DNA of 64,000 bases from an uncultured Gammaproteobacteria bacterium (GTDB taxonomy: Bacteria; Patescibacteriota; Microgenomatia; CAZETR01; Amesbacteraceae), in NCBI GenBank assembly GCA_964543035.1, contig CAZIVL010000002.1, positions 58,340 through 122,339 on the forward strand, in the 5' to 3' direction. Position numbers and translations under genes: made by a program. The first letter of the stretch is position 1; each line of letters starts with the position of its first letter. The notes below the pieces were generated by a model. It saw nothing but the letters and a program-made list of their open reading frames with translations. It was not told the origin of the DNA and ran no database searches. Shown one piece after another: positions 739 through 18,484 of the stretch.

Positions 739-787
739 TTGAACTACTTTCTACTATGATTCGATCTTTTTTTGTTATACTTTTTAT

Positions 788-2552: not shown

Positions 2553-2611
2553 CTAAACTAATTATGTACCTAAGTAATGTGGAGGGCAAATGGAAATGGG
2601 TATTAGTATAA

Positions 2612-3121
2612 TTGGGAAATATGATCAACTTTAAAACTAAGCTCATAAAAATCGGGGAGAAGGTGATTGTGAGGCTGCCAAGAGAGGCGAGCTCTAAGCT
2701 GCCGTCGCGAGGAATTGTGGCGGTTATGGGATCTGTAAACAAGCAAAAAATTACAACCGTACTGGAGCCGGATGGAGTGGGGAGCCACTGGTTTGAAGTA
2801 TCGGGAAAATCTGGAGATATGGTGACTGTCACACTCGAGACTACCGACGTCTGGCCAGAACCGAAAGTGTCTGGCGACATAAAAAAAGCGCTCGAAGAAT
2901 CGGACAGAGCTCATGAAGTGTGGAAAGATATAACCCCAATGGCTAGGTGGGACTGGGTGAGGTGGATAAACTCCACCAAAAATATGGAGACTAGGAAAAA
3001 ACGGATTGAGGTAGCCATGTCCAAGATGAGATCTGGGAAGAGAAGACCCTGCTGCTTTAATAGAACAGAGTGTACGGTGCCCGAAGTAGCAAATGGGGGA
3101 GTGTTAATGGGTACAGTCTGA
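2612..3121 (+). CDS. DUF1905 / YdeI-OmpD-associated family protein
   Basis: 169 aa; N-terminal IKIGEKVIVRLP DUF1905-like beta domain plus a C-terminal basic YdeI-like region (WVRWINSTK...RKKRIE). Confidence 0.5.
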   Translation: MGNMINFKTKLIKIGEKVIVRLPREASSKLPSRGIVAVMGSVNKQKITTVLEPDGVGSHWFEVSGKSGDMVTVTLETTDVWPEPKVSGDIKKALEESDRAHEVWKDITPMARWDWVRWINSTKNMETRKKRIEVAMSKMRSGKRRPCCFNRTECTVPEVANGGVLMGTV

Positions 3122-3126
3122 AATAA

Positions 3127-3687
3127 ATGAAAGAGGTGTTTGCAATTGTGGCGTCGGTGTTTGCCATCATGGGCAATATCTCTTATGTACGGGACGTATT
3201 TGCCAAAAAGGTCATACCCCATCCTTATACTTGGCTGGTGTGGTCGATGGTCTCGGGGATTACTTTTTTTGGACAAGTCGTACGGGGCGCTGGAGTGGGA
3301 GCGATACCGACTGGGATTGCAGAACTGTTTACTATCCTAATATTTTTATTTTCTTTGCGATATGGATTTTCGCAAATCAGAAAGATCGACACGTACTTTC
3401 TCATATTTGCTTTGGTGGGAATCGGAACTTGGATCTTGACCTCTGACCCCACCATATCTGTAATAATTGCGGTAGGGATAGACTTGATCGCGTTTGTACC
3501 TACACTTCGAAAAACTAGGCTAAATCCCAAGACAGAAACGCCCACGCTATATGGGATGAATGTGCTGCGGCATGGCCTGACACTGATGTCTCTTGAGAGC
3601 TATAACATAGTCACGACGCTGCACTCGCTGGCTATGGTAGTCGTGAACGGGATGATGACGGTCATGACTGTGGGTAAGAAAAAGTAG
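3127..3687 (+). CDS. integral membrane protein, function unknown
   Basis: 186 aa with about 5 hydrophobic helices. Confidence 0.4.
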   Translation: MKEVFAIVASVFAIMGNISYVRDVFAKKVIPHPYTWLVWSMVSGITFFGQVVRGAGVGAIPTGIAELFTILIFLFSLRYGFSQIRKIDTYFLIFALVGIGTWILTSDPTISVIIAVGIDLIAFVPTLRKTRLNPKTETPTLYGMNVLRHGLTLMSLESYNIVTTLHSLAMVVVNGMMTVMTVGKKK

Positions 3688-3693
3688 GAGGAG

Positions 3694-4077
3694 TTATAAA
3701 TGGTCGGAAGTATCTGAGTCGGCATCTTCTTTGGTTTTGTGAATTGTGCCGTCTACATGATGGGGAGGGGAGTAAAGAGTATAGAGCTTGAGAGGTTGTG
3801 TGTCTGAAATATTGATGACATTGTGCTCGGTGCCGGCGGGGACTACAAACGCATCACCATCTCGAACCTCGTGTTCCTGGCCGTCCATAATCAACTTGCC
3901 TACACCAGATTCGATCCTCAAAAATTGGTCAGTCACGGCATGAACTTCGGTGCCGATCTCTCCCCTGGGAACAATAGACATGACGACCAATTGGGTGTGC
4001 TGGCTGGTAAACAATACTTGTCTAAAAAACTCATTTTTTCTGGTCTTTTCCTCGATATTGCCTACGAAACCTGTCAT
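3694..4077 (-). CDS. cupin domain protein
   Basis: 127 aa; HxH...E...H-type cupin motifs (GTEVHAVTDQF ... GDAFVVPAGTEHNVIN). Confidence 0.7.
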   Translation of the reverse strand: MTGFVGNIEEKTRKNEFFRQVLFTSQHTQLVVMSIVPRGEIGTEVHAVTDQFLRIESGVGKLIMDGQEHEVRDGDAFVVPAGTEHNVINISDTQPLKLYTLYSPPHHVDGTIHKTKEDADSDTSDHL

Positions 4078-4112
4078 TACTAATAGTATATACCCTTTGG
4101 TAAAATACAGAG

Positions 4113-4535
4113 GTGGCGGAGCTGAAAACTAAATTGACTAGTCAAGACCCTAAAGAATTTTTGGCAACTATTGAACCCGTCGAGAAAAGAAAAGCCGGAC
4201 TAGTGCTCCTGGATCTATTTGAAAAAGTCACGGGAGAAAAAGGAAAGATGTGGGGGAGTAGTATCGTCGGATTTGGGATGTATCACTATAAATCAGAAAG
4301 AAGTACACAAGAAGGGGACTGGCCACTGGTGGGGTTTTCACCCCGAAAGCAAAATCTGACCTTGTATCTGATGGCAGGATTTGGAGAACATAGAGAATTG
4401 TTGTCTAAACTGGGGAAACACAAAACGAGTGCAGGATCTTGCTTGTATATAAACAAACTTGAGGATGTGGATATGCAGGTGCTTTCGGCACTCATCAAAA
4501 AATCATATCTGGAGGCAAAGAAGAAACTGACTTGA
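4113..4535 (+). CDS. DUF1801 (YdhG-like) domain protein, GTG start
   Basis: 140 aa; overall YdhG/DUF1801-like pattern (KAGLVLLDLFEKVTGE...WGSSIVGFGMYHY). Confidence 0.6.
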   Translation: MAELKTKLTSQDPKEFLATIEPVEKRKAGLVLLDLFEKVTGEKGKMWGSSIVGFGMYHYKSERSTQEGDWPLVGFSPRKQNLTLYLMAGFGEHRELLSKLGKHKTSAGSCLYINKLEDVDMQVLSALIKKSYLEAKKKLT

Positions 4536-4538
4536 ATT

Positions 4539-4958
4539 TTAGACCCAGAGGGCGAGGAGCGTGCCCATGGAGCAAAGAAGGACTAGATAGTAAGCATTGT
4601 TGAGAGCGTAAAGTTTCCAGGACTTGCCCTCCCAGAGAACTGAAGCCAGAGTCGTGGGAGCGACAAAGCCTAGCCAATTCCAGAATCCAGTCTGAAGACC
4701 GGCGGAGACACCACTGGTGCCAAGATAGGACATGGCGAAAACAATAGTGTGGGACAGAACAAAAGCCATGATAAGGGAGCCTAAAAGCTGGATGCCGTAT
4801 AACTTGCCCATCTCGCTACTACTCATATTGATATCTTTTTTTGATAATCCCATGAGCTTCATCCAGGGTTTGCCAAAGATTGGGCCATACCAGAGGGAAC
4901 CTATAACCATAGAAAGAACGGCGCAGGCGAGAACGGCAAGATAATTTATGGGAACCAT
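4539..4958 (-). CDS. DUF1761 family membrane protein
   Basis: 139 aa, 4 TM; SLWYGPIFGKPWMKLMGLSK resembles the DUF1761 signature. Confidence 0.6.
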   Translation of the reverse strand: MVPINYLAVLACAVLSMVIGSLWYGPIFGKPWMKLMGLSKKDINMSSSEMGKLYGIQLLGSLIMAFVLSHTIVFAMSYLGTSGVSAGLQTGFWNWLGFVAPTTLASVLWEGKSWKLYALNNAYYLVLLCSMGTLLALWV

Positions 4959-4988
4959 GGAAGTGATGATGACAAAAATGATTGATGC

Positions 4989-5180
4989 TTGTCAAGGCCG
5001 GTGTATAATAAATTTATGAAAAATGGGGGAGGAGGAGCAGTATATGGACTGGGGTTTTTGGGAGCTCTGGTGTACTACTTTCAGCAAGCAAACGGATTTT
5101 GGGAAGTGATTGTGGGGATATTTAAGGCCATGCTGTGGCCAGGGATATTGGTGTATCAGATACTGAATTTTTTGGCATGA
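4989..5180 (+). CDS. small membrane protein
   Basis: 63-aa ORF with two hydrophobic helices; weak. Confidence 0.25.
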   Translation: MSRPVYNKFMKNGGGGAVYGLGFLGALVYYFQQANGFWEVIVGIFKAMLWPGILVYQILNFLA

Positions 5181-5392
5181 GTGAGAAACGTTTCATTTAT
5201 GGACCTGCTTATACAGACGATGGTTGGACTGTTCGGCCACTTATGGATAGGCAAACAGGGGTGATACATGGATCGTCTGCTTTTAAACAGATTTCTCCTG
5301 AAATTCAGGCACAAATGCCAGTTGTTGTAGAGCGATTAACATTGAGAGAGGTAATCGGTAAAGCAATAGCTTGGTTACGGCGAGACTTTTAA
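5135..5392 (+). CDS. hypothetical protein
   Basis: 85-aa ORF; no motif; overlaps the 4989..5180 ORF. Confidence 0.2.
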   Translation: MARDIGVSDTEFFGMSEKRFIYGPAYTDDGWTVRPLMDRQTGVIHGSSAFKQISPEIQAQMPVVVERLTLREVIGKAIAWLRRDF

Positions 5393-5410
5393 AGTTGCTA
5401 CAATGGATAT

Positions 5411-6610
5411 ATGGATGAGATGACGCGGGTGGTGTTTTTTTCACTATTGGGAGTGGGGGTCGGGGCGCTGATTGCAGCTGTGGTCATGAAGATGCAGGCG
5501 GATGCGCTGCGGAGAAGAGTGAAGTATGAGGCACTTCTTGGAAGTCTGGGAGAAGGGATCGTGGTGACAGATGAAAAAGGAAATATAGAGCTAATTAACA
5601 AACAGGCGGAAGTGCTCGTGGGTTGGAGAAATGAGGAAGTGGTGGGAAAGAAATGGTATGAGATTGCCCCTCTGGAAAATGAAAAGGGTGAGCGAATCCC
5701 GCCGGAAAAAAGAGCTACCCAGGTGGTACTCACCACTGGTAAAGCGAGATCAAATGACAAATACAGTTATGTAAGACGGGATGGAACAAAATTTGCCGTA
5801 GGGACGACGGCGGCGCCGATTGTCGTGAACGGCAAGATAGTGGGAGTAATCGCGGTATTTCGTGACATTAGCCACGAAAAAGAAGTGGACCGAGCCAAAA
5901 GTGAATTTGTGTCACTGGCTTCACACCAGCTGAAGACTCCACTATCTGCTATCAAATGGTTTTCGGAAATGCTTTTGTCTGGAGACGTAGGAGCTCTAAA
6001 TGATGGACAGAAAGAATATGTAGACAACATTAACCAATCCAATGAAAGAATGATCACTCTGGTCAACTCACTTCTAAATATCTCGCGAATAGAATCGGGG
6101 AGAATAATAGTAGACCCGGAACCCACTGACATGTCTAAACTGCTGTCTGAGGTGACGGTAGGACTTAAGGCCAAGCTCGAGGAAAAACATATTGACCTGG
6201 TGGTGCAAGTACAAGATGGATTGCCCCTTATAGAAGTGGATCCAAAACTGATATCCCAGGTGTATGTAAACTTGCTCACAAATGCGATCAAATACTCACC
6301 AAAAGACAGTAAGGTGGTAGTGAGTGTGGTGAAAGATGGTGATGAAGTCCTGTCGCAAGTCTCGGACCGAGGATATGGAATACCCAAAGAGGAGCAACAC
6401 CGACTGTTTGATAAATTTTACCGGGGATCAAATGTCGTCAAATTGGAAACTGATGGAACGGGGTTGGGACTGTATCTGGTCAAAGCCATAATCACATCTT
6501 CGCAGGGGCGAATATGGTATGAATCTGAAGAGGGGAAGGGAACAAGCTTTTGGTTTGCATTACCCATCTCTGGTATGATCGCAAAAGAAGGGGAAGTGGG
6601 GCTGATATGA
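5411..6610 (+). CDS. PAS-domain sensor histidine kinase
   Basis: 399 aa; N-terminal TM, PAS-like region, H-box SLASHQLKTPLSAIKW, N/G1/G2 boxes (LLTNAIKYSP, DRGYGIP, GTGLGLYLVKAI). Confidence 0.9.
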   Translation: MDEMTRVVFFSLLGVGVGALIAAVVMKMQADALRRRVKYEALLGSLGEGIVVTDEKGNIELINKQAEVLVGWRNEEVVGKKWYEIAPLENEKGERIPPEKRATQVVLTTGKARSNDKYSYVRRDGTKFAVGTTAAPIVVNGKIVGVIAVFRDISHEKEVDRAKSEFVSLASHQLKTPLSAIKWFSEMLLSGDVGALNDGQKEYVDNINQSNERMITLVNSLLNISRIESGRIIVDPEPTDMSKLLSEVTVGLKAKLEEKHIDLVVQVQDGLPLIEVDPKLISQVYVNLLTNAIKYSPKDSKVVVSVVKDGDEVLSQVSDRGYGIPKEEQHRLFDKFYRGSNVVKLETDGTGLGLYLVKAIITSSQGRIWYESEEGKGTSFWFALPISGMIAKEGEVGLI

Positions 6611-6972
6611 AAAAAATCTTGATTGCAGAAGACGATAAATTTTTGGCCAATGCATATAGAGTCAAACTAGAAAAAGCCGGGTTTGAACTAAAAATTGCTG
6701 CCGATGGGGTGGAGGCTGTCGAAATACTCAAGACTTTTGTACCAGATGCCATCATGCTGGATCTGGTTATGCCCAACAAAGATGGGTTTGCCACACTTGA
6801 GGAGATAAAAAAAGATCCGAGACTCCAAAAAATCCCGGTACTGGTGGCATCTAATCTGGGACAAAAGGAGGATATTGAGAGAGCAAAGAAGCTGGGAGCG
6901 GGAGATTATGTGGTGAAGAGCGACCTGTCTATGAGTGATCTCGTATCCAAGGTGAACTCTTTGGTACAATGA
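6607..6972 (+). CDS. single-domain response regulator (CheY-like receiver)
   Basis: MKKILIAEDD...IMLDLVMPNKDGF...VLVASNLG...GAGDYVVKS; start overlaps the HK stop (ATGA). Confidence 0.9.
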   Translation: MKKILIAEDDKFLANAYRVKLEKAGFELKIAADGVEAVEILKTFVPDAIMLDLVMPNKDGFATLEEIKKDPRLQKIPVLVASNLGQKEDIERAKKLGAGDYVVKSDLSMSDLVSKVNSLVQ

Positions 6973-6976
6973 TTTT

Positions 6977-8662
6977 ATGCAACTGCCCTATCAAGATGCT
7001 GCCTTGTATCAGGCTCTTTCGGAACTCCAGGTAATAGAAAAAAACAAGCTGGATGAGGCTTATTTGGAAAGCCAGCAGAAAAAACTGAATCTGGCCAAAA
7101 TCCTTTTGGATAGAAACCTAATTGCGGATGAAAACCTGGGAAGAGTGGAGGCGGAACTGGCGGGGGTGCCGCTCGCTCGCCTGGGGGAAGTGGCGATACC
7201 GGACGATGTACTTCGAGTAGTGCCCGAGGTGATGGCGCGAAAGCAAAAAGTAATCGCTTTTGGACATGATGCCGCTGGCTGGAAACTGGCGATGGCAAAT
7301 CCCACTAACACTGAAGTCAGAGACTTTATCGCCAAAAAGACAGGAGAAAAAATAAATGTGTACTATGCCACTGAGCGAGACTTGGACATGGCCATGGGCT
7401 TCTATAAAAAAGATCTACAAAAATCTTTTGATGAACTGCTGGCGGCGCAGGTAAGTGAGGCCAGCCGGGGGGGACCGGCTAAATCTGAGGCGCCGATTAT
7501 AAAAATAGTCAGTCTCTTAATCGAATACGCGTTTGCCAACCGAGCATCGGATATCCATATAGATCCGGAGAAAAAGATAACTATTGTGCGATTTAGGGTA
7601 GATGGAGTGCTACATGATGTACTGGAACTGTCTCCTGAGATACAAGAACAAGTGGTGTCAAAGATAAAAGTGGCATCCAGACTACGAACTGATGAACATC
7701 TATCTGCTCAGGACGGGAAGATGCAGGCGATGGTCGAGAATGAAGAATTGGATATCCGTGTGTCAATAGTCCCGGTCGTGCATGGTGAGAAAATCGTGAT
7801 GCGCCTTCTGTCGTCTGGGATCAGGCAACTATCGATAGGAGACTTGGGAATGAGTGAAGTGGATCTGCAAAAAGTAAAAAGTGGATTTGATAAACCATAT
7901 GGAATGGTCCTGGTCACGGGGCCCACTGGATCAGGGAAGACGACGACTATCTATACAATTCTCAAAATTCTAAATGTGCGGGAGATCAATATCGCGAGTA
8001 TCGAAGATCCGGTGGAATATGACATCGAAGGTATTAACCAGATCCAAGTGAACCCTAAGACGAACCTGACATTTGCCAATGGACTCCGAGCAATCTTGCG
8101 TCAGGATCCAAATGCGATATTTGTGGGAGAAATCCGGGATGCGGAAACTGCCGATATCGCCGTCAACTCGGCCATGACGGGACACTTGGTCCTGTCGACC
8201 TTGCACACCAACGATGCAGCCACGACACTGCCGAGACTAATTGATATGGGAGTGGAACCCTTTTTGGTGGCATCGACTGTAAATATCATTGTGGGACAAA
8301 GACTTGTTCGAAAAATATGTGAGAAGTGCCGAGTATCACAGACTCTGACGCCTACTGAAGTGACAAGACACTTGCCGGAGGAGCTGGTCACGAAAGTATT
8401 TGGGACGGGAGAAATACGGGTGTATATGGGTAAGGGGTGCCCGGTGTGTCATGGAACAGGGTATACGGGGAGAGCGGGAATATTTGAAGTGTTGGAGATG
8501 ACCCCTGCTATCAAAGAGCTGATTATGAATAAAGCAGATGCCGACAAAATCCGTAAAGAAGCAGTGACTGCCGGTATGACTACAATGCTAGAAAATGGAC
8601 TCAAAAAAGCCGCTGCCGGTGTAACCACCATAGACGAAGTTATTCGAGTAACCAAAGAATAA
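6977..8662 (+). CDS. pilB: type IV pilus assembly ATPase PilB (GspE family)
   Basis: 561 aa; N-terminal GspII_E_N-like region, Walker A VTGPTGSGKTTT, His-box LVLSTLHTNDA, tetracysteine motif CEKC...CPVCHGTG. Confidence 0.9.
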   Translation: MQLPYQDAALYQALSELQVIEKNKLDEAYLESQQKKLNLAKILLDRNLIADENLGRVEAELAGVPLARLGEVAIPDDVLRVVPEVMARKQKVIAFGHDAAGWKLAMANPTNTEVRDFIAKKTGEKINVYYATERDLDMAMGFYKKDLQKSFDELLAAQVSEASRGGPAKSEAPIIKIVSLLIEYAFANRASDIHIDPEKKITIVRFRVDGVLHDVLELSPEIQEQVVSKIKVASRLRTDEHLSAQDGKMQAMVENEELDIRVSIVPVVHGEKIVMRLLSSGIRQLSIGDLGMSEVDLQKVKSGFDKPYGMVLVTGPTGSGKTTTIYTILKILNVREINIASIEDPVEYDIEGINQIQVNPKTNLTFANGLRAILRQDPNAIFVGEIRDAETADIAVNSAMTGHLVLSTLHTNDAATTLPRLIDMGVEPFLVASTVNIIVGQRLVRKICEKCRVSQTLTPTEVTRHLPEELVTKVFGTGEIRVYMGKGCPVCHGTGYTGRAGIFEVLEMTPAIKELIMNKADADKIRKEAVTAGMTTMLENGLKKAAAGVTTIDEVIRVTKE

Positions 8663-8667
8663 ATAAT

Positions 8668-9714
8668 ATGAGCGTATCGCCGGTAGAAAAACTTCTTCTG
8701 ACCAAACACTTGGCCATAATGCTCAAAGCCGGAATACCCCTGACTGAAGCCGTGAATGTGGTGATCGCACAGACGAAAAATAGCGCGTTCAAAAAACTCC
8801 TAGGGGGAATTGAGGCAAATCTGAGAAATGGGCAAACACTGGAAAAAAGTCTGTCTAAGTACCCCAAAGTATTTGATCCTCTATACCGAAGTATTGTGGC
8901 AATCGGGGAAGAGTCAGGGGTCTTGGAAAAAAACCTAAATTATTTGGCATCACAACTGGAAAGAACTTATGAATTTAGACGAAAAGTACAAGGGGCCCTC
9001 TTGTACCCGGTAATAGTCCTGATAACAATGGCGATTGTGGGGAGTGGCATAGCTTTGTTTGTGCTGCCACAACTTGTGGATCTGTTTGCCTCGCTGGAGG
9101 TGGAGCTGCCAATGTCTACCAAGGTGCTGCTGTTTGTGGCAACGGCTATGAAATCGCATGGAGTGATAATAATTGCCAGCTTGTTTGGGGCTGTGGGTCT
9201 ATTTGCATTACTTGTACAGACAAGACCCATCAAGCCTATTTGGCAGAGATTTCTTTTGAGACTGCCTATATTTGGTAACTTGAGACAACAAATGGAGATG
9301 GCTATGTTTTGTCGCAATTTGGGCATCATGCTTCGATCTGGACTGCCTATTGCCTCGGCTCTCAAATCTTGTGGTGAAGCCACGGAAAACCTGATCTATA
9401 AATCATATGTCTTGGGATTGGAAAGAGCAGTAGATGGGGGATCGACAATCGAAAACGAGCTTTCCAATGGAAAATATCCACTGGTGCCTACAATGGTGAC
9501 GAAGATGGTGGGGATTGGGGAAAAGTCAGGAAATCTGGATGAAGTACTTTTATATTTGGCGGACTTTTTTGAAGAAGAAGTGGATCATATGACAAAGAGT
9601 CTGTCTACGATACTTGAGCCGGTACTCTTGTTTGCTATTGCCATGGTGGTCGGATTTTTGGCATTGTCTATCATCTCACCTATCTATAAATTTACTGGTA
9701 GTGTAGGGAACTGA
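8668..9714 (+). CDS. pilC: type IV pilus platform protein PilC (GspF family)
   Basis: 348 aa, duplicated GspF-type domains with 3 TM segments. Confidence 0.85.
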   Translation: MSVSPVEKLLLTKHLAIMLKAGIPLTEAVNVVIAQTKNSAFKKLLGGIEANLRNGQTLEKSLSKYPKVFDPLYRSIVAIGEESGVLEKNLNYLASQLERTYEFRRKVQGALLYPVIVLITMAIVGSGIALFVLPQLVDLFASLEVELPMSTKVLLFVATAMKSHGVIIIASLFGAVGLFALLVQTRPIKPIWQRFLLRLPIFGNLRQQMEMAMFCRNLGIMLRSGLPIASALKSCGEATENLIYKSYVLGLERAVDGGSTIENELSNGKYPLVPTMVTKMVGIGEKSGNLDEVLLYLADFFEEEVDHMTKSLSTILEPVLLFAIAMVVGFLALSIISPIYKFTGSVGN

Positions 9715-9715
9715 T

Positions 9716-10132
9716 ATGCAAAAACCCGGGTTAACCATGATCGAGCTAACGCTGGTTTTGGGACTGGTAGTCATGCTATCGGCAATTTCGGTGGGATGGT
9801 ATTCGCGGTTTTTGACCCAAAATGCAGTGTCTGACACGACTGATTATCTGGTGGAAACACTGAGAAAGGCGCAAGTTTACACGACGTCGGGGAGGTATGA
9901 CAGCGGTTGGGGAGTGTCATATGTGGCACCTACTATTACGTTGTACGCAGTGGGTACAAGTGCGTATAACGAGACATATACTGTGAATTCCAATATCTCT
10001 ATCTCGGGACTAACTAGTATTGAATTTTCTAGTCCGGCTGGAATTCCGAGTGCGACGGCGTCTATTGTAGTTTCGGGTAACAATACTAGTAAGACGATTA
10101 CAGTTAATTCGGCTGGATCGATATCTAGATGA
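9716..10132 (+). CDS. prepilin-type N-terminal cleavage/methylation domain protein (minor pilin)
   Basis: N-terminus MQKPGLTMIELTLVLGLVVMLSAI is a class III signal peptide (G-L-T-M-I-E-L). Confidence 0.75.
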   Translation: MQKPGLTMIELTLVLGLVVMLSAISVGWYSRFLTQNAVSDTTDYLVETLRKAQVYTTSGRYDSGWGVSYVAPTITLYAVGTSAYNETYTVNSNISISGLTSIEFSSPAGIPSATASIVVSGNNTSKTITVNSAGSISR

Positions 10133-11940
10133 AAAGAAAATTGGGATTCTCTGTCGTGGAAGTCACATTGGCCGTCGCTTTGTTTGCCATATTTGGAGTG
10201 GGAGTAGTCGTGGCTGTGATATCAAATCTGAGCTTAAACCAGTCGGGACAAGAACAAACGATTGCTAGTCAATATGCTTCTGAAGGGGTGGAAGCAATAA
10301 GGTCTATTAAAAACCAAAATTTTTCGGCACTAACTAATGGTAATTGGGGAATCGTTCAAAGCGGGGGAGTGTGGACACTATCTGGGGCTAATAATACTTG
10401 GGATAAATATACGCGGGTGATAAATATCTCTTCTGTGCAAAGAGATGTGAGTGGGAATATCGTGGCATCGGGAGGAACAGTAGATCCGGATACAAAAAAA
10501 GTAACGGTGACTGTGTCTTGGAACGTGAATCCTGTAAGACCTGTGTCGTCTGTAACTTCGTCATATGTCACAAACTGGAAAGCAGGGGTGGATGACGGGG
10601 TGATCGTGTATGGAGATACAGGTAACGCTACTATTCAGAGATATCGACTGTTTAATGACTCGACTAATTCTTTTACTACAGAGGGACCTGCGGGGTCGGG
10701 ATTTTCGGACGCGAGTGTGGGAAGAAGATTTGTTACGGCTAGTTCTCCGACCAAAAAAGAAGCAGTGGCGGGGTATGAAAGTTCTAGTGGGGCAATGAGG
10801 ATAATGTGTTTTGACGGAAGTACTTGGAGTAATGAATTTACGGTCGCTTTGGGAGGAAACCCCCTTATAGATGGAAGATTTGATATTGGGTATGAAAAAA
10901 GTACTGGCGATGTGATCGTGGTGTATTCGAAAAATGTAGCGAATACAAATGAACTGGCATATCGGACAAAATCGGGAAGCGTCGGTTGCGGGGCGGCTAA
11001 TTGGAGTGGGGAAAATCTATATGACGCAGTACGGACTACTGGGACTGTGCATTGGATAAGAGTAGAAAGTAATCCGGTATCCTCGTCATCCGATGTGGCA
11101 GTCGCATGGGCGGACTCGAACTCAGATCTGTCGGTTGCTATCTGGACGGGTAATTCGTTTGGCATTGCAGAGCCTGCGACTGTTCTTGAAAATAACCTGG
11201 AGCGGGCATCTGGTTCACAGGATGTATTATCTTTTGATCTGGCTTATGAAAGCTTGACGGGCAATCTGATGGTTGTATGGGGACTATTGCAGGCAACAAC
11301 TTGCACAGCCGGTACGACGATTGCGACCACTAATTGTATTCGGTATGCCAGATACTCGGGCGCTTGGGAAGCCGTGGCTGTGATACCTACGGTTGCAGAT
11401 CCGGCTACAAATATAGATATAGCTGGGAATCCAGCTAGTAATGAGCTAGCTCTGATTGCAGTCGATAATTCTCAGGCTGATACATCACTGGCTTATTGGT
11501 CGGGGAGTACTTGGACTGGGACTGCGAATAGAGATACTTCGGCGCAAGCAGTTTCCGCTGGAGCAAAACGTGTGGCAATAGGGTGGCTCAAATCTGGATC
11601 TACGAGTAGAAGTATTGCTGTGTACGATGATGCCGGAGCGACAACAAATATAGGTTGGGTGGTGGGAAACGGAGCGGTATTTACGAGTCAAACAGACGTG
11701 GCACCAACACCGGCTTTTGGGGCACCGCAGACGTGGTATGAGATATATCCTGATCCCATAAACACTGACAAGCTGATGTTCGTTGTTTCAGACAACAACA
11801 ACGATCTGTTTGCCAAGAGGCTGGTAATGACGTCTGCCCCGGCTTTTACCTGGACTAATTCAGACGGGGGAGCGGCTTTGGAGACATTGATGGGACAAGC
11901 AGTCGGGGCTCCTTATGGTTTTTCGTATTGGAAGCAATGA
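10129..11940 (+). CDS. large (603 aa) prepilin-type protein, probable minor pilin/tip protein
   Basis: N-terminus MKRKLGFSVVEVTLAVALFAIFGVGVV is a prepilin-like signal with E at +5, followed by about 570 aa of extracellular sequence. Confidence 0.65.
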   Translation: MKRKLGFSVVEVTLAVALFAIFGVGVVVAVISNLSLNQSGQEQTIASQYASEGVEAIRSIKNQNFSALTNGNWGIVQSGGVWTLSGANNTWDKYTRVINISSVQRDVSGNIVASGGTVDPDTKKVTVTVSWNVNPVRPVSSVTSSYVTNWKAGVDDGVIVYGDTGNATIQRYRLFNDSTNSFTTEGPAGSGFSDASVGRRFVTASSPTKKEAVAGYESSSGAMRIMCFDGSTWSNEFTVALGGNPLIDGRFDIGYEKSTGDVIVVYSKNVANTNELAYRTKSGSVGCGAANWSGENLYDAVRTTGTVHWIRVESNPVSSSSDVAVAWADSNSDLSVAIWTGNSFGIAEPATVLENNLERASGSQDVLSFDLAYESLTGNLMVVWGLLQATTCTAGTTIATTNCIRYARYSGAWEAVAVIPTVADPATNIDIAGNPASNELALIAVDNSQADTSLAYWSGSTWTGTANRDTSAQAVSAGAKRVAIGWLKSGSTSRSIAVYDDAGATTNIGWVVGNGAVFTSQTDVAPTPAFGAPQTWYEIYPDPINTDKLMFVVSDNNNDLFAKRLVMTSAPAFTWTNSDGGAALETLMGQAVGAPYGFSYWKQ

Positions 11941-12446
11941 TAAAAAATAAAAACAAATTTGGTTTTACTTTGGTGGAGATTATTTTGTATATAGGGATTG
12001 TGTCTATGATACTGGTCTCTGTCTCGTCTCTGGGGTGGATAGTGGTCTCGTCTGGGGCTAAAAGTCGGGTGCAAGAAGAAGTGTCGGGGACAGCCAGATA
12101 TGTGGCGGAAAGGATTTCGTATGAAATACGAAGAGCGTCGGGGATTGGAAGCTGGTCTGCCAATAGTATTACTTTGAATAATTTTGCGCCGGATACGACG
12201 ACTGTGATTACCTGGGATTCTCCAACTGGCAAGGTGAGGATAAACAAAAACGGAACGGGATTTGTAGATTTGAATTCCAACGATACGGCGGTGACTACGC
12301 TCACTTTTACCAACAACACGTCGGTAGATAACAAGACAAAAAACATTGGATTTACTCTCACTGTATCGGCGAACACTGCTTCTGGAAGTCAAATATATAA
12401 GTCAGAGACGACAGTTAGATCGACGGTAGAATTGAGGAGTAACTGA
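11937..12446 (+). CDS. prepilin-type minor pilin
   Basis: MIKNKNKFGFTLVEIILYIGIVSMIL class III signal peptide; start overlaps the upstream stop. Confidence 0.7.
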   Translation: MIKNKNKFGFTLVEIILYIGIVSMILVSVSSLGWIVVSSGAKSRVQEEVSGTARYVAERISYEIRRASGIGSWSANSITLNNFAPDTTTVITWDSPTGKVRINKNGTGFVDLNSNDTAVTTLTFTNNTSVDNKTKNIGFTLTVSANTASGSQIYKSETTVRSTVELRSN

Positions 12447-13993
12447 TGAAAAAAAATATGCGAGGTGGCTTCATTGCCACATATTCAGTCCTGGTAGTAC
12501 TAGCAGTAGTCGCGTCTGTGGCTACGGTGACTACATATTTGGCAGTGGGAAATGCCAAGGGATCACTGTCTTTTGCCAAGGGAGTGGATGCTTTGGGATT
12601 TGCGGAAGGATGCGTGGAAGATGGACTGCTTAAGGCTCGAGCTGCTGCTACATTTGGTGATCCAGTGGGAACTATTGTAACCGTGACCAGACCAGAAGGG
12701 ACGTGTCAGCTGACTGTGGACTCTAAGGTGGGGGAGGTGTGGACGATGACGGTCACGAACTTTGTGCCGACGCCTACAATTGCGGCTACGCCTACTCCTT
12801 CGAATACGCCGACTCCTTCACCAACGCTTGCTCCAACGGCTACTCCAGCGCCTTGGCCTACTCCTACTCCTAATGGCCCAACGCCTACAGCAGGGCCGAC
12901 GTGTGTGATGCGAAATGTAAGTACGCCATTAACTGACTTGGGAGGGGGAGAGTATATGCGACTTACCACGATCAATCCCGAGACATATACAGCAACGGGG
13001 GTTATTGGGGGATTGTATCCTGGAGGAGTGAATATCCGGCCCGGAATACATAAAACAGATGGGCTGGCAGCGGCTGCCTCGATCCAACCACTTGATGCCA
13101 CCGGCGTGCCAGATGGGGAGGGACTGATCGGAATGACTTCGATCGGGATGTCAAACACGTCTACGGAATTTGGGGTGTTCAAGTCTTTGGCGGACGCCGA
13201 TTCGCAAAAAAATTCTAAAGTCAAAATCGCCAATGGGGCTTTGTCGGGGTCGGTCGTGGAAGTGTGGACGGATCCTTTGAATAATAACTTTAACTATGCT
13301 TGGAATACGCATTTACCCCAACAGATAACGCAAGCGGGGCTAACTAATGCTCAAGTGCAGGTCGCTTGGATAAAAGTGACGCAGTTTGCTTACCAACCTG
13401 ATTTTCCGGCTGCGATGGTGAATCTAAAAGGAATGTATGAAGAATTGGCTAGGCTTTTGAAAGCCAGATTTCCGAATCTGAGAATCACTTATTTTTCCAG
13501 TCGCACTCGGTCGTTTTCATATCTGGGAGGACTATCGGGTGAATCGACGGCTTTTGAAAATGCATTTGCCGTGCGGTGGATGATCGAGGATCAGATGAAT
13601 GGACTGGGAAATGTGAATTTTAATCCTAATAATGGTCCAGTTGTCGCTTCGTATATTACTTGGGGACCGTATTTGTGGATAGACGGCGAGAATGCGAGGG
13701 GTGATGGGCGAACGTGGCCTGCAAATAGTGTGGTCTCTGACTGTACTCATCCATCTACTTGGGGATCGACGATGGTGGCGGATATGTTGACCCAACACTT
13801 TAAGACTGATGAAACGGCCGCTCCTTGGTACTTGGCTGCTCCTGGAGGTACGCCCTCACCCACGCCAACTCCAACCGCGGCACCAACACCAACCCCCGCA
13901 CCTTATGTGAGCGTGCAAAATCAAAGAACGATACGAGTGATATTTAATCGGACTGGATCTGGGCTGACGCTAACTTCTTGGCAAGAGCTGTAG
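12446..13993 (+). CDS. pilus-locus protein with N-terminal hydrophobic anchor and two Pro/Thr-rich linkers
   Basis: 515 aa; N-term GFIATYSVLVVLAVV; linkers PTPTIAATPTPSNTPTPSPTLAPTATPAPWPTPTPNGPTPTAGPT and GGTPSPTPTPTAAPTPTPAP; no known catalytic motif recognised. Confidence 0.5.
   Translation: MKKNMRGGFIATYSVLVVLAVVASVATVTTYLAVGNAKGSLSFAKGVDALGFAEGCVEDGLLKARAAATFGDPVGTIVTVTRPEGTCQLTVDSKVGEVWTMTVTNFVPTPTIAATPTPSNTPTPSPTLAPTATPAPWPTPTPNGPTPTAGPTCVMRNVSTPLTDLGGGEYMRLTTINPETYTATGVIGGLYPGGVNIRPGIHKTDGLAAAASIQPLDATGVPDGEGLIGMTSIGMSNTSTEFGVFKSLADADSQKNSKVKIANGALSGSVVEVWTDPLNNNFNYAWNTHLPQQITQAGLTNAQVQVAWIKVTQFAYQPDFPAAMVNLKGMYEELARLLKARFPNLRITYFSSRTRSFSYLGGLSGESTAFENAFAVRWMIEDQMNGLGNVNFNPNNGPVVASYITWGPYLWIDGENARGDGRTWPANSVVSDCTHPSTWGSTMVADMLTQHFKTDETAAPWYLAAPGGTPSPTPTPTAAPTPTPAPYVSVQNQRTIRVIFNRTGSGLTLTSWQEL
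12775..12900 (+). repeat. coding low-complexity (Pro-Thr)n linker repeat
   Basis: ACGCCTACTCC-type degenerate tandem repeats encoding PTPTPSPT inside the 12446..13993 ORF. Confidence 0.6.
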
Positions 13994-14000
13994 AGGGCTG

Positions 14001-14029
14001 TTGACAAGCTCTCCAGAATAGTCTTTACT
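14001..14029 (+). promoter_or_regulatory. putative sigma70-like promoter of the major pilin gene
   Basis: TTGACA (14001-14006), 17-nt spacer, TTTACT (14024-14029), 10 nt before the ATG at 14040. Confidence 0.3.
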
Positions 14030-14039
14030 AGATGTAGAT

Positions 14040-14528
14040 ATGAAAACTGGTTTTAAGCGTGGTTTTACACTGATTGAACTTTTGATGGTGGTCGCGATTA
14101 TTTCTCTTTTGGCCGTATCGGTGTTTGTGGCTCTGAATCCCTCTAAGAGATTGCGTGATACTAAAGATGCGAGAAGAGCAACAGATGCGGATACGATTTT
14201 AACTGCCATTCATCAATATATTGTCGACAACAAAGGATCTTTGCCAACTGGTCTTACTACACCGATGGTTATCACAATGTTGGGAACAGGATCTGCTTGT
14301 AGTACCACTCCTGGTGCTTATTGCGGATCGGTACCGGCAGCTTGTGTGAACTTGACTACACCGTTGGCCACCTATTTGAAGAGTATGCCGATTGACCCCA
14401 ACGGAACCTCAGGAACACCAGCATTTGATGCAGCCAAGACTGGCTATGCAGTGACAGTAGACGCTAACGGTATTGTGACGGTCACTTCATGTTCTTCAGA
14501 AAATTCGGCCATTACTGTCTCCAGGTAG
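14040..14528 (+). CDS. pilA: type IV major pilin
   Basis: MKTGFKRGFTLIELLMVVAIISLLA canonical prepilin leader (G-F-T-L-I-E-L); 162 aa with a C-terminal Cys pair. Confidence 0.85.
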   Translation: MKTGFKRGFTLIELLMVVAIISLLAVSVFVALNPSKRLRDTKDARRATDADTILTAIHQYIVDNKGSLPTGLTTPMVITMLGTGSACSTTPGAYCGSVPAACVNLTTPLATYLKSMPIDPNGTSGTPAFDAAKTGYAVTVDANGIVTVTSCSSENSAITVSR

Positions 14529-14556
14529 GTCTCCGAATTTAGTGTAAAATTGATGT

Positions 14557-15156
14557 ATGAGATGGATTGTAAGGGTGGGGAACAGGGGAATTCAAATCGT
14601 ACAGGATCATCCTGATGCGACTTTCACCTGGGGATACCCGGAAAGTTTGGTGGTAAATGGTGATGTAATAGATGAAAAGAAGCTGTGCGAAGCATTTTTG
14701 CAATTTGTAAAAAACAACAGAAAAAGACCAGTGCAGACCGTGGTAACTCTGACTGAGGAAGTAGTGTTTTATAAAAAAGGTATATTAAAGACTGGGCTTC
14801 AGGAATTTTTGGATCTGGTACCCCTAGAAGAAGCGAAGATGATAAAAAAGATTGTCGAGTACAAAGATGGAAAGGTCGATGTGTGGGTATGCAATAAGAG
14901 CTTGGTAAATGCGATTGTGACTGCCCTGGATGGAAAACTGGAGGGGGTCGTCTCTGAGGCAATGCTAAAAGATGGGGACTATAAAAATGTGTGGAAAGAT
15001 AGAAACGGTTTGAGAAATGGAAGCTTTTTGACTAAAGGGAATGGGACGGCTGGGACATCTGAAAAAACTTGGACGTGGCTCGTGTGGGGAGTGGGAGTCA
15101 TGATCTGGCTGGGGATAATCGGGGCGCTCATATATTTTAAGGTGTTGACAAAATAA
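14557..15156 (+). CDS. hypothetical protein with C-terminal TM anchor, downstream of pilA
   Basis: 199 aa; C-terminal WTWLVWGVGVMIWLGIIGALIYF helix; no recognised domain. Confidence 0.35.
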   Translation: MRWIVRVGNRGIQIVQDHPDATFTWGYPESLVVNGDVIDEKKLCEAFLQFVKNNRKRPVQTVVTLTEEVVFYKKGILKTGLQEFLDLVPLEEAKMIKKIVEYKDGKVDVWVCNKSLVNAIVTALDGKLEGVVSEAMLKDGDYKNVWKDRNGLRNGSFLTKGNGTAGTSEKTWTWLVWGVGVMIWLGIIGALIYFKVLTK

Positions 15157-15194
15157 ATTTGTATTCGTAATATATCCCCATAGGGGGGATATAT
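15145..15194 (+). promoter_or_regulatory. promoter (TTGACA-N17-TAATAT) overlapped by a C/G-rich inverted repeat, candidate CsoR operator
   Basis: TTGACA at 15145-15150 and TAATAT at 15168-15173; palindrome TATATCCCCATAGGGGGGATATAT at 15171-15194 overlaps the -10 and the csoR start codon. This resembles known CsoR operators (C-tract/G-tract inverted repeats). Confidence 0.5.
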
Positions 15195-15465
15195 GACATA
15201 CAGACCAAAAGATACTAAAGAAAGAATAATTCACAGACTAAAGATCTCCCGGGGACATCTGGATCGGGTAATAAAAATGGTAAGTGAGGACGCGTATTGT
15301 ATTGATGTCATGCATCAGCTGCAAGCCATTGAGTCAGGACTATCTGAAACTGGAAACACACTTTTGGAAAATCATTTGAAGTCGTGTGTGGCAGATGCTA
15401 TCAAGGGTGGGAGGGCACAAGAATCGATAGAGGAAATTATGCAAGTGTTTAAGAAAAAGAAATGA
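15193..15465 (+). CDS. csoR: copper-sensing transcriptional repressor CsoR (CsoR/RcnR DUF156 family)
   Basis: 90 aa; [16 protein letters not shown]...[16 protein letters not shown] with a conserved Cys-His-Cys pattern (C36/H61/C65-like). Confidence 0.85.
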
Positions 15466-17558
15466 TCAAAAAGACTTATGAAATAAAAGGAATGCACTGT
15501 GCATCTTGCGTGAGTGTGATCGAAAAAAGTCTAAAAAAAGTGCCTGGAGTAACCGATGTGGTGGCAAATCTGGCCAGTAATAAGGCTACGGTGACAATGG
15601 AACATGAGTTGCCAGAGGCCGAATTGGCAACTGCTGTAAAAAAAGTAGGGTACACCCTGGGGATAAGTGAACACGAGCATGCGAACGGATCACATGTGGT
15701 AATCCCCATGACTTTGGTGGGAGTGAGTGTAGTAATAATGCTTTGGGAGTCCTTACTGCCTATGAGTGCTTTTGTAGAAGAATTGTTTCATCATATTTTG
15801 CCACTGATGGCCACATATATGATGTTTTCTGTGGGGAGGCCATACTTATTGGGAATATGGCGGTTTTTGAAATATAAAAAGGCGGATATGGATGCACTTG
15901 TAGGAATCGGGACGGGAGTGGCGTTTCTTTATAGCTTTTGGTCATCGGTGACTGGAGGCGAATATGTATATTATGATGTGGTAATTGTGGTCATAGGGTT
16001 GGTTACCTTGGGCAAACATCTGGAAGCGGTAGCGCGAGCCCACACGTCGGATGCGATCAAAAAACTTTTGGGATTGTCACCCAAGCAAGCCCGAGTGATA
16101 CGAGGTGAAAATGAGATAGATGTGCCAATCGAACAAGTGGTTCTGGGAGACATGATCCGGGTGCGACCAGGGGAAAAAGTACCCGTGGATGGAGTGGTAG
16201 TAGAAGGTGAATCGGCGGTGGATGAATCGATGGTGACAGGAGAAAGTATGCCAATTGAGAAAAGAGTGGGTATGGATGTAATTGGGGCGACAGTGAATAA
16301 AACGGGTAGTTTTGTCATGAAGGCGAAAAGAGTCGGATCTGAGACCATACTTTCACAAATTATTAGGCTGGTCGAAGAGGCGCAAGGATCGAAAGCGCCT
16401 ATTCAGAGGCTCGCAGACTCGGTGTCAGAATATTTTGTGCCGGTAGTTTTGATACTAGCCCTGGCGACATTTCTGATATGGGGATATGTGCTGGGAGACT
16501 TCAGACAGGGAACAATCGCTGCAGTGACGGTTCTGATCATTGCTTGTCCGTGTGCGATGGGACTGGCTACACCCACGGCTATTATGGTGGGTACGGGACT
16601 GGGAGCCTCGCGGGGAATATTGATAAAAAATGCAGCTGCTTTGGAAATGGCAAATAAGGTACAAACAGTAGTGTTTGATAAAACTGGAACTCTCACTCAG
16701 GGTCGGCCTGAGGTGGTGTATTTTTCTTCTAAAAAAGTACTTGCAATTGCAGCAAGCATCGAAAAAGCTTCGGAACACGTGCTGGCAGAAGCAATAGTCC
16801 GAAAAGCTCACGATGAAGGAGTGAAACTGGAGAAGGTAACAAAGTTTGCTGCAATTGTAGGACAGGGAGTGGAGGGAGTGGTGATGGGTAAGAAGTGGGT
16901 AGTGGGTCGTGTTTTGACAAAGGAGTATGAGGAACAGGTTAGAAAATTGGAGAGCGAGGGGAATACAGTCATTTATGTGTCACAGGGAGAAAATGTAGAA
17001 GGAATAATAGCGGTTGCTGACACAGTGAAAGAAACGGCTGTGGAGGGGATATTGGTACTACAAAAATTGGGACTTGAGGTAGTGATGATGACAGGGGATA
17101 ACAAGAGGACAGCTGATGCTATTGGGACGCAACTGGAAATAGACAGGGTACTTTCTGAAGTAAAACCCGCTGACAAAGAATCTGAGGTGCGAAAGATACA
17201 GAAAGAAGGAAAAATTGTGGCTATGGTGGGAGATGGAATAAATGATGCGCCGGCACTGGCTGTTTCGGATGTGGGGATGGCTATGGGGACGGGGACTGAT
17301 GTAGCAATAGAAGCCTCATCGGTGACCCTCGTTAACCGAGATCTGAAAACAGTAGCAGCCACCATAGAGCTATCCAGAAAGACAATGAGAACAATTGTCA
17401 TGAACCTGGTCTGGGCATTTGGATACAATATTGTCCTTATACCCGTGGCCATGACGGGAAATCTAAATCCGATGCTTGCTGGCCTGGCAATGGCTCTGTC
17501 CTCGGTCTCGGTCGTGACTAACTCATTACTTTTGAAACGTGCGAAAATACATATATGA
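15462..17558 (+). CDS. copA: copper-translocating P1B-type ATPase
   Basis: 698 aa; N-terminal HMA domain [11 protein letters not shown] motif [19 protein letters not shown] phosphorylation site, GDGINDAP hinge. Confidence 0.95.
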
Positions 17559-18484
17559 ATCTGTGGGTCATACTATTTACGGGACTGACTGTGGGAGGGC
17601 TGACGTGTCTGGCTGTCCAGGGAGGACTTTTGGCTTCGATTATTGCTACAAATGAAAACAAAAATACACTGAGGCCAACCTTGATATTTTTGATGGCAAA
17701 ATTAGCGGCGCATGCTGCTTTGGGATTTGGGCTGGGGGCGTTTGGGAGTGTGGTGGGAATATCGGATAACGTTACTTTGACAGTGCAAATACTAGTCGGG
17801 GTATACATGATCTTGGTGGCACTGAATCTACTGGATATCCACCCAATATTTAGGTATGTGCAGATCCAACCGCCAAAGTTTCTGGCAAAAAAGATTAGAA
17901 CAGCATCGACTCCGGCACTTCTGGGACTCATGACGGTATTTATGCCTTGTGGAACAACTTTGGCTATGGAAGCGCTGGCGGTGGGAAGTGGAAATCCGGT
18001 AACGGGGGCTCTTATTATGGCGGTATTTGTCCTGGGGACTACACCTGCTTTTTTGGGAATTGGATACGCTTCCTCTAAACTGGGGGATAAATATAGAAAG
18101 AACTTTTTTAGACTGGCGGCCATACTGGTCATGTACTTGGGACTGTCTTCTATAAATGGAGCGTTGATTGTAAAAGGGATAAATATACTTCCTCAAAGAG
18201 AAAGTGGAGAATCAGAGACGACACAAAATGTGACTATAAATGTGATGGCTTATGGATACGAGCCGCGATATGTGAAAGTAAAACAAGGTGAGGAGGTCAC
18301 TGTGACCCTGGTCGGAAAAGGGGGATACTCTTGTGCTTCGGCATTTAGAATACCGAGCTTGTCGATTGGGAAAAACCTGCTTCCTGATGAAAAATATACT
18401 TTTTCTTTTACACCAACTAAGAAAGGTAAAATACCTTTTACTTGTTCGATGGGAATGTACACTGGCGTAATCGAGGTCATATGA
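17555..18484 (+). CDS. polytopic membrane protein (DsbD_2/TauE-like, Cys-containing) fused to a C-terminal cupredoxin-like domain
   Basis: 309 aa; about 6 TM helices with LTCLAVQGG and [11 protein letters not shown]; the C-terminal 90 aa ([25 protein letters not shown]...[14 protein letters not shown]) looks like a cupredoxin beta-sandwich. Placement between copA and copZ suggests a copper-related function. Confidence 0.5.

Follow-up and report, generated by a model that had tools for sequence, protein, structure and literature searches.

How Patescibacteria find their hosts and attach to them is an open question, and reviews have named the minor pilins of the pilus tip as proteins to test for host attachment (PMC11665869). 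Here we ask what two oversized proteins, of 603 and 515 amino acids (aa), contribute to a type IV pilus (T4P) gene cluster of an uncultured ultra-small Microgenomates/Patescibacteria bacterium. The cluster comprises ten open reading frames (ORFs) on the plus strand and occupies positions 5411-15156 of a 64-kb stretch of DNA, which was analysed as a whole and is called the window in the following. An earlier note on this DNA had suggested that the two proteins might act as a tip adhesin or as an enzyme displayed on the pilus. This proposal is supported by a predicted propeller fold in the 603-aa protein and a predicted SGNH fold with conserved Ser, Asp and His residues in the 515-aa protein.

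We favour, with moderate confidence, the following answer. The locus is a conserved operon of the type IVa pilus (T4aP)-like kind, in which a clade-wide pilin bears a propeller that would serve as an adhesin. An SGNH-type enzyme, inserted into the pilin at the cap position, would enable the pilus tip to modify its target.

The 515-aa protein is a minor pilin with an inserted domain

In related operons the position of the 515-aa gene is taken by small homologues of 122-143 aa. Their alignment with the 515-aa protein covers residues 1-108 and 487-515 of the latter and is interrupted by just one clean gap, which identifies the 515-aa protein as the fourth minor pilin of the set, with 378 residues inserted. 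Cys56, Cys87, Trp512 and Glu514 (the last two forming a W512-x-E514 motif) are conserved between the 515-aa protein and the small homologues. Its N-terminus reads G↓FIATY and is devoid of the glutamate at position 5 (Glu5); that of the small homologues follows the pattern G↓(Y/F)(I/V)A(L/I)x, and none of those aligned has Glu5 either. Both Pro/Thr linkers are absent from all small homologues aligned. The earlier note had described a protein with Pro/Thr linkers; the two linkers are indeed there, but the protein is not of a separate kind, being a Glu5-less minor pilin with an inserted domain.

An AlphaFold2 model of the protein, based on a combined alignment (MAFFT) of small pilins and short enzyme homologues only, reached a predicted local distance difference test (pLDDT) value of 82.6. 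A helix (residues 5-66) and strands (77-107) are followed by an alpha/beta domain at about 160-465, mostly with pLDDT > 85, and the last strands (495-503 and 506-514) rejoin the pilin module, the flanking pilin strands being confident. The model places the insert between the third beta-strand and the last two strands of the pilin sheet. Values of pLDDT < 50 were obtained at residues 111-136 and 140-143 of linker 1 (disordered region 111-143) and at residues 471-490 of linker 2. By the alignment with the small pilins and by the model, the protein can be regarded as a modular pilin, one without Glu5 and the motif signature and with its module inserted instead of appended. As the last of four core minor pilins and without Glu5 it corresponds to a cap subunit of the GspK/PilX type; it gave no Pfam or NCBIfam match to the T2SSK or PilX families.

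The insertion architecture has so far been seen only in this organism, among the sequences inspected. Homologues of the 515-aa protein cover only its middle (approximately 59-68% of its length, roughly residues 150-490), and none of the 119 homologues listed for the inserted domain shares its ends. A profile of the small pilin family retrieved 161 proteins, the best 120 of which are all 123-160 aa long and include no insertion variant. For the inserted domain, 2661 relatives were retrieved in an exhaustive phmmer scan of 1.84 billion representatives. In the best 150 of these, all matches stay within approximately residues 105-507, and a prepilin N-terminus does not occur. A search for the prepilin motif in sets of 119 and 143 homologues of the inserted domain gave two regular-expression matches, both of which are signal peptides and were discarded.

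Such rarity would also be expected if the 515-aa ORF were an artefact of assembly or gene calling that joined a small pilin to an unrelated esterase gene, the same architecture being found in no other database sequence among the matches inspected. However, the frame is uninterrupted, with pilin sequence on both sides of the insert, and the G+C content at third codon positions is similar in the insert (0.47) and in the rest of the window (0.45). Moreover, the DNA recurs with zero mismatches in Logan assembly SRR16481187 (window positions 129-12366) and in the separate Logan assembly SRR16481186 (4984-16566), the latter copy including the whole 515-aa gene. Since the DNA is identical across two independent assemblies from different runs, a one-off chimera is unlikely, and we regard an artefactual origin as effectively excluded. 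The insert shows no compositional sign of recent transfer. No direct repeats flank it, and the only repetition is at the codon level inside the Pro/Thr linker.

Predicted SGNH fold of the inserted domain

The structure prediction and fold search proposed in the earlier note led to SGNH esterases for the insert and to propeller lectins for the 603-aa protein. The top Foldseek matches of the insert are the SGNH esterases BT4096, a Phocaeicola sialic acid esterase and XAC1771 (E-values, E, from 5e-4 to 4e-2), and the model shows the three-layer alpha/beta/alpha arrangement of the SGNH fold. The putative catalytic residues are Ser236 (13151-13153), Asp432 (13739-13741) and His435 (13748-13750), each of which is identical in 98% of 124 homologues. 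They lie in segments that correspond to SGNH blocks I (G234-M-S236-N, after strand 227-234) and V (D432-C-T-H435). A conserved N263-G264 pair after strand 259-262 could represent block II, and the third strand is followed by a conserved W308-x-K310, with no G-x-N-D. Cys433, inside the D-C-T-H motif, is 94% conserved; a disulfide near the catalytic histidine is possible.

Profile searches with Pfam, NCBIfam and the PDB gave nothing above noise for the insert, curated SGNH models (Lipase_GDSL, Lipase_GDSL_2 etc.) included, and Lipase_GDSL was detected in only 3 of 48 homologues of the inserted domain, at E 0.02-0.05. A match of the insert to a C-type lectin (E 0.03) was dismissed as due to chance. 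On the strength of the model and the motifs, we assign the insert to a distant, unnamed SGNH branch with putative esterase activity.

The donor family of the domain, which occurs in Microgenomates and Chloroflexi, consists of Sec-secreted proteins with their mature end at a cysteine corresponding to Cys153 of the 515-aa protein. Cys153 is the first residue of the inserted domain. The donor proteins often carry Pro/Thr-rich linkers followed by Laminin_G_3 or fn3 modules.

With homologues of this kind, the pilin part could be a mere membrane anchor, and the unpolymerised protein would display its enzyme on the cell surface, through the wall, as a nutrient-scavenging or glycan-deacetylating ecto-enzyme. 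This is conceivable in so far as the domain homologues are ordinary secreted enzymes, as linkers and carbohydrate-binding-type modules such as theirs are typical of polysaccharide esterases, and as the 515-aa protein lacks both Glu5 and a detectable N_methyl signature. We nevertheless consider it unlikely. Both halves of the pilin fold have been kept, including the Cys pair and the C-terminal W-x-E; the gene stays translationally coupled among the minor pilin genes; and in a simple anchor the strands that follow the enzyme at the C-terminus would be superfluous. As for Glu5, the small homologues lack it as a family, and so do the cap subunits GspK and PilX. There is also a slim chance that the SGNH domain works on the cell's own wall, for example as a peptidoglycan O-acetylesterase that opens a path for the growing pilus.

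A propeller-bearing pilin conserved across the clade

The 603-aa protein is a conserved component of the operon across Microgenomates and other Patescibacteria. We detected 145 homologues, most of them 570-670 aa long and 40-62% identical over the full length; those with names belong to Levy-, Woese- and other Microgenomates/Patescibacteria. The earlier note had reckoned it as evidence against its proposal if the two large proteins were ordinary conserved minor pilins. In so far as it is conserved throughout the clade, the 603-aa protein fits this description; the insertion in the 515-aa protein was found nowhere else among the sequences inspected.

The N-terminal region of the 603-aa protein begins with G↓FSVVE and resembles PilV (NCBIfam PilV, E 2.8e-4, residues 5-131; N_methyl, E 0.021; both below cut-off). 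An AlphaFold2 model from a 49-sequence alignment reached a mean pLDDT of 90.3 and a predicted template modelling score (pTM) of 0.79. It shows an alpha-1 helix (residues 9-63), a pilin beta-sheet up to about residue 150 and an all-beta domain thereafter, so that the protein has the make-up of a modular pilin in the sense of Raynaud et al. 2021. From the strand pattern and the sequence, the propeller appears to consist of about eight blades of two alternating types.

When the model was compared with the PDB by Foldseek, 406 structures matched at E <= 0.001. At the top are the seven-bladed fucose/rhamnose lectins PLL2, PHL, PLL3 and BP39L (E 7e-10 to 3e-9; template modelling (TM) score 0.64-0.66 on the target; 12-13% identity; root-mean-square deviation of about 6 Å), followed by fungal and bacterial fucose lectins, sialidases and GH43 enzymes. 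Although lectins of the PLL/PHL type are the closest solved folds, they have seven blades where the model seems to have about eight, and because propellers resemble one another, the term lectin is to be taken as a lead only. We conclude that the PilV/GspI position is taken by a modular pilin, the 603-aa protein, which bears a lectin-like propeller. This protein matches neither RCC1 nor any other Pfam family. We also considered a PilY1-like identity of the propeller and rejected it: there is no Pfam match to Neisseria_PilC, such proteins are not among the best 50 of the 406 Foldseek matches, and the 603-aa protein is itself a pilin, which sets it apart from the PilY1/PilC adhesins.

The same propeller is also found without a pilin module. 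It forms tandem pairs in a 981-aa ORF (related locus L019, 7100-10044, cut at the contig end) and in a 1177-aa ORF (L027, 1194-4727), and it occurs in 1349- and 2980-aa proteins of a metagenome-assembled genome (MAG) labelled Acidimicrobiales (L025, 4840-17767). Further pilin-free propeller loci are L028 and L030.

Gene content and conservation of the pilus operon

All ten ORFs lie on the plus strand (Table 1), and their domains agree with the gene order given in the earlier note, i.e. histidine kinase, response regulator, PilB, PilC, the 138-, 603-, 172- and 515-aa proteins, major pilin and an anchored protein. From pilC through the 515-aa gene, neighbouring genes abut or overlap by 1-4 nucleotides (nt), which suggests translational coupling. 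The 172-aa ORF more likely encodes 169 aa from the ATG at 11937, the same start as called in the related locus L002. The response regulator likely starts at the ATG at 6607, which overlaps the stop codon of the kinase gene.

Table 1. Features of the T4P locus, with positions in the window
Feature	Position	Strand	Basis or remarks
Sensor histidine kinase, N-terminal membrane helix	5411-6610	+	Pfam PAS 1.4e-12, HisKA 8.6e-19, HATPase_c 2.1e-28
Receiver-only CheY-like response regulator, 121 aa	6607-6972	+	Pfam Response_reg 4.9e-22, residues 4-116 of 121
PilB-type assembly ATPase	6977-8662	+	Pfam T2SSE 2.6e-126, N-terminal MshEN 1.2e-12
PilC/GspF-type platform protein	8668-9714	+	T2SSF 1.5e-58 in two stretches; GspF 7e-82, PilC 2e-65
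Minor pilin 1, 138 aa	9716-10132	+	G↓LTMIE with Glu5; GspH/ComGD-like position
Minor pilin 2 (603 aa; ORF 10129-11940), pilin module	10129-10590	+	G↓FSVVE; AlphaFold2 and NCBIfam PilV
Minor pilin 2, C-terminal all-beta propeller, residues ~155-603	10591-11940	+	AlphaFold2, Foldseek
Minor pilin 3, 169-172 aa	11937-12446 (ORF from 11928)	+	G↓FTLVE with Glu5; GspJ/ComGF-like position
Minor pilin 4 (515 aa; ORF 12446-13993), N-terminal pilin part, residues 1-108	12446-12769	+	Alignment to small homologues, AlphaFold2
Minor pilin 4, Pro/Thr linker 1, residues 109-152	12770-12901	+	Predicted disordered
Minor pilin 4, inserted domain with predicted SGNH hydrolase fold, residues 153-465	12902-13840	+	
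Minor pilin 4, Pro/Thr linker 2, residues 466-486	13841-13903	+	Predicted disordered
Minor pilin 4, C-terminal pilin part, residues 487-515, and stop codon	13904-13993	+	Two beta-strands, W512-x-E514
Possible weak promoter for major pilin	TTGACA 14001-14006, 17 nt, TTTACT 14024-14029	+	Read by eye
Major pilin, 162 aa	14040-14528	+	KRG↓FTLIE; N_methyl 9.3e-7, TIGR02532 5.8e-8
Membrane-anchored accessory protein, 199 aa	14557-15156	+	Soluble N-domain and C-terminal membrane helix

To compare the locus with its relatives, a 12-sequence alignment of the 603-aa family was searched against species-representative genomes, the 49-sequence alignment being too diverse for this purpose. The proteins of the window were then compared by phmmer with all ORFs of the 29 loci that the search returned. 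About 24 of the 29, from Woese-, Levy-, Davies-, Collierbacteria and other Microgenomates/Patescibacteria, share the order PilB, PilC, 138-aa protein, 603-aa protein, 172-aa protein, 122-143-aa protein and major pilin. Homologues of the 138- and 172-aa proteins keep their positions, and those of the major pilin end the operon. In most of the related loci the operon has a histidine kinase gene beside it, together with one or two genes for receiver-only regulators, and a receiver-only gene is usually located directly upstream of pilB. The link to a kinase and regulator is therefore a trait of the clade. The comparison of synteny called for in the earlier note has thus produced some two dozen loci with the same order, the kinase/regulator pairing included.

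Some relatives deviate in detail. In L012 (8295-9952) the kinase and regulator genes lie inside the operon, between the genes for minor pilins 1 and 2. In L020-L024 and L026, titled Saccharibacteria or Peregrinibacteria, the 603-aa homologue has 769-864 aa, an extra segment of 180-250 residues separating the pilin module from the propeller; in the five of these loci that are titled Saccharibacteria (not L024), a short kinase of 258-273 aa follows the major pilin. L003, L007, L011-L013, L015, L016, L018 and L027 bear third-party MAG titles of 'uncultured Gammaproteobacteria' or 'Pseudomonadales' despite their Patescibacteria-type operon. These titles do not fit the gene content, and this looks like mislabelling.

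The machinery has components of a T4aP-like system, namely an assembly ATPase of the PilB/GspE family and a platform protein of the PilC/GspF family, by their T2SSE and T2SSF domains, and a major pilin with a class III signal (Gly, Phe, Glu5). This 162-aa pilin scores above the cut-offs for N_methyl (28.6 bits; cut-off 21.2) and TIGR02532 (32.3 bits; cut-off 16.3). The 138-, 603-, 172- and 162-aa proteins all have N-termini with Gly-x4-Glu. Weak NCBIfam matches were obtained for the 138-aa protein (PpdD, GspH, ComGD) and for the 172-aa protein (ComGF, PRK10557), the latter also matching Pfam N_methyl at E 3.8e-4. Gene order and the pattern of presence and absence of Glu5 fit the GspH-I-J-K or FimU-PilV-W-X scheme. 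Core minor pilins of these two sets prime assembly and sit at the tip, with GspK or PilX on top.

Neither a prepilin peptidase (PilD, Peptidase_A24) nor PilM/N/O, the retraction ATPase PilT or a secretin was found in a Pfam scan of 37 further ORFs of the window and in precomputed Pfam hits for the upstream part, which bears out what the earlier note had said of PilD, PilM/N/O and secretin. Likewise, no second gene of the T2SSE family, i.e. PilT, lies within 10 kb in the related loci compared (about 24).

The lack of PilT in these regions raises the question of whether the locus encodes a short pseudopilus or a DNA-uptake fibre (Com-like or T2SS-like), with the large modules serving secretion or DNA capture. 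PilB scores nearly equally against the NCBIfam models for type IV-A PilB (524 bits; cut-off 676) and GspE (509 bits; cut-off 630) and reaches the cut-off of neither, and the best-scoring model for PilC is GspF. Natural competence has been reported for Saccharibacteria (PMC10187176). On the other hand, PilB possesses an N-terminal MshEN/GSPII-type region that ComGA lacks, and the matches to ComGA and ComGB are partial and lower. Moreover, the order with the major pilin last differs from that of comG, a lectin-like propeller and an esterase are not DNA-binding modules, and the window ORFs scanned include no secretin or outer-membrane parts. All in all, we regard a pseudopilus or DNA-uptake fibre as improbable.

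The regulator lacks an output domain in Pfam searches and probably acts via protein-protein contact; as a guess, its partner may be PilB. The pilus could be under the control of this two-component pair. A separate promoter for the major pilin had been proposed in the earlier note. The TTGACA/TTTACT pair with its 17-nt spacing is visible in the 46-nt gap before the gene, but it is weak: the consensus promoter scan did not call the site at 14001-14029, and the region has fewer promoter-like sites than shuffled sequences. The promoter and terminator scan of the region gave nothing beyond chance.

The 199-aa accessory protein, whose C-terminal hydrophobic segment was read from the sequence, matches no Pfam or NCBIfam family. 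It is weakly homologous to the proteins of 351-362 aa encoded after the major pilin in L005, L015 and L031. In many loci a related partner of 350-417 aa, in which a soluble N-domain is followed by a membrane helix and an extracellular LytR_C domain, lies beside the major pilin; by Pfam, LytR_C was detected in six relatives and not in the 199-aa protein. Judged from sequence, the latter is a short form of this partner without LytR_C. In the longer relatives only the LytR_C part matches anything, and because the N-domain of the 199-aa protein matches no family, a PilM/PilN-like role would be a guess.

Other features of the window

Directly after the pilus operon lie copper-handling genes (15193-18484, with more at 33964-35291). 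They encode a CsoR-type repressor (Trns_repr_metal), a P-type ATPase of 698 aa, whose sequence shows a CPC motif and, near the N-terminus, a CxxC metal-binding motif, and a DsbD_2-cupredoxin fusion; two further cupredoxin proteins are encoded farther along the window. At 21288-24447, a 431-aa ferric-reductase-like membrane flavoprotein adjoins a protein of 434 aa that contains three cytochrome b5 domains (E 1.8e-64), a redox pair that is unexpected for a reduced-genome bacterium.

On the minus strand, four genes at 27725-31250 encode a protein of 414 aa that includes a camelysin/TasA-type Peptidase_M73 region (E 8e-8), two proteins without assignment of 278 and 229 aa, and a protein of 225 aa that faintly matches signal peptidases S26/S24 (E 0.005-0.01). 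This may be a TasA/SipW-like fibre locus and a second surface-filament system. Also on the minus strand (38890-41349), a protein of 430 aa that contains a CBM60 carbohydrate-binding module (E 3e-9) adjoins an unusually long type I signal peptidase of 385 aa.

The G-C skew is above 0 in every 2-kb bin of window positions 1-64000 (0.06 to 0.40), the cumulative skew climbs steadily, and the long ORFs are mostly on the plus strand. An unusual strand composition disparity has been reported for a complete Microgenomates genome (PMC7143001).

Proposed function of the pilus tip

In the reading that we favour, a monoderm-type bacterium would build its pilus from the products of a single operon: kinase and regulator, PilB motor, PilC platform, four minor pilins, major pilin and membrane accessory protein. 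The four minor pilins, in GspH-I-J-K or FimU-PilV-W-X order, would by analogy form an assembly-priming complex and end up at the pilus tip. There, the propeller of minor pilin 2, likely an adhesin given its conservation throughout the clade, would bind, and the Glu5-less minor pilin 4 would form the cap. Tethered to the cap by linkers of about 45 and 20 residues, the SGNH esterase or deacetylase would be located beside the adhesin and, upon contact, could modify an acylated glycan or lipid on a host cell or substrate.

Several points weigh against this scenario. The placement of the 603- and 515-aa proteins in a pilus and at its tip is taken over from known systems. The SGNH assignment is founded on a predicted structure and motifs, sequence profiles giving no Pfam or PDB match, and the classical block III Gly-x-Asn-Asp is not evident in the insert. 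The likeness of the modelled 603-aa propeller to lectins is of a generic kind, given the TM scores and identities cited above and the ease with which propellers match one another. In each search for the insertion architecture the best 120-150 matches were inspected, so that rarer variants lower down may have been missed. Finally, since neither PilD, PilM/N/O nor a retraction ATPase was found among the window ORFs scanned, and no PilT-like gene within 10 kb in the relatives, it is a presumption that the machine is complete.

A more specific version of the scenario, which we put forward tentatively and regard as rather doubtful, is that the cell is an epibiont whose tip, combining a lectin-like adhesin and an esterase, recognises a glycan on the host surface and strips it of acyl, probably acetyl, groups at first contact. 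Were this true, the tip would be a cellular counterpart of phage tailspike deacetylases, and for the first time the cap subunit of a type IV filament would have been found with a catalytic domain spliced into it.

The locus provides two testable tip candidates for the question of host attachment, a propeller-bearing pilin family conserved across Microgenomates and a natural experiment in which a predicted enzyme has been spliced into a presumed cap pilin. If the enzyme is active and displayed at the tip, T4P would gain a catalytic role beyond binding, motility and DNA uptake. In that case the insertion site would also point to a loop in the cap pilin with room for a cargo of approximately 380 residues, which would be useful for the engineering of pilus display. 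Otherwise, the locus still illustrates clearly what the standard pilus operon looks like in this clade.

Comparison with known systems

The two-component pair linked to pilus genes recalls PilS-PilR and PilG/PilH. PilR, however, is an NtrC-type sigma-54 activator, and the regulator of the present locus, a receiver of 121 aa, has neither sigma-54 activation nor DNA-binding domains. It is CheY-like, as are PilG and PilH; these use a CheA-type kinase, whereas the kinase here is a classical PAS-HisKA protein.

PilY1/PilC adhesins likewise combine a large beta-propeller with minor pilins at the tip, and since they are tip-presented propellers, the 603-aa protein probably works in a similar manner. 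PilY1 is a non-pilin encoded after pilX, whereas the propeller of the 603-aa protein is fused to a pilin in the PilV position. A closer counterpart is PilX2 of Nanosynbacter lyticus TM7x (Saccharibacteria). This minor pilin ends in a seven-bladed propeller that resembles Photorhabdus lectins of the PLL type, and deletion of PilX2 halves host binding (PMC11623550). Going by the published description, the 603-aa protein is built in the same way, and its nearest solved folds are the same. PilX2 has been described with RCC1 repeats and without a canonical prepilin signal, whereas the 603-aa protein has the canonical G↓FSVVE, no RCC1 and about eight blades. Since a propeller-bearing modular pilin is already known in PilX2, the 603-aa protein belongs to a known class.

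Modular pilins as a whole comprise > 1200 proteins in 264 architectures, many of them from Patescibacteria, and include the vWA-bearing PilB and the lectin-bearing PilC of Streptococcus sanguinis (Raynaud et al. 2021, PMC8179133). As in our locus, a small pilin module bears a bulky functional module for display on the filament. In these proteins, however, the module is C-terminal to the pilin module, whereas in the 515-aa protein it resides inside the pilin beta-sheet between long Pro/Thr linkers. The published dataset lists the combination of IPR012902 with IPR013830 (SGNH hydrolase-type esterase) once (PMC8179133). The 515-aa protein itself would have been undetectable by that survey, because its carrier lacks Glu5 and the IPR012902/N_methyl signature. 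In our literature search, no description of an SGNH-bearing pilin was found, nor a characterised enzyme-bearing pilin of this type. For the proposed de-esterification of a surface, the SGNH esterase domains of phage tail fibres and tailspikes, such as gp63.1 of phage G7C (PDB 4qnl), offer a counterpart.

For insertion as such, GspK is the precedent, as it has a domain inserted within its pilin beta-sheet (PMC8179133). The 515-aa protein shares with GspK and PilX the fourth place in the minor-pilin set and the lack of Glu5; it differs from both in that its base protein has only about 125 aa, and from GspK in that the insert is a catalytic-type SGNH domain on flexible linkers and not a rigid alpha-domain. 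What is new in the 515-aa protein is thus a modelled fold of catalytic type, inserted instead of appended, in a pilin at the cap position, with its function predicted.

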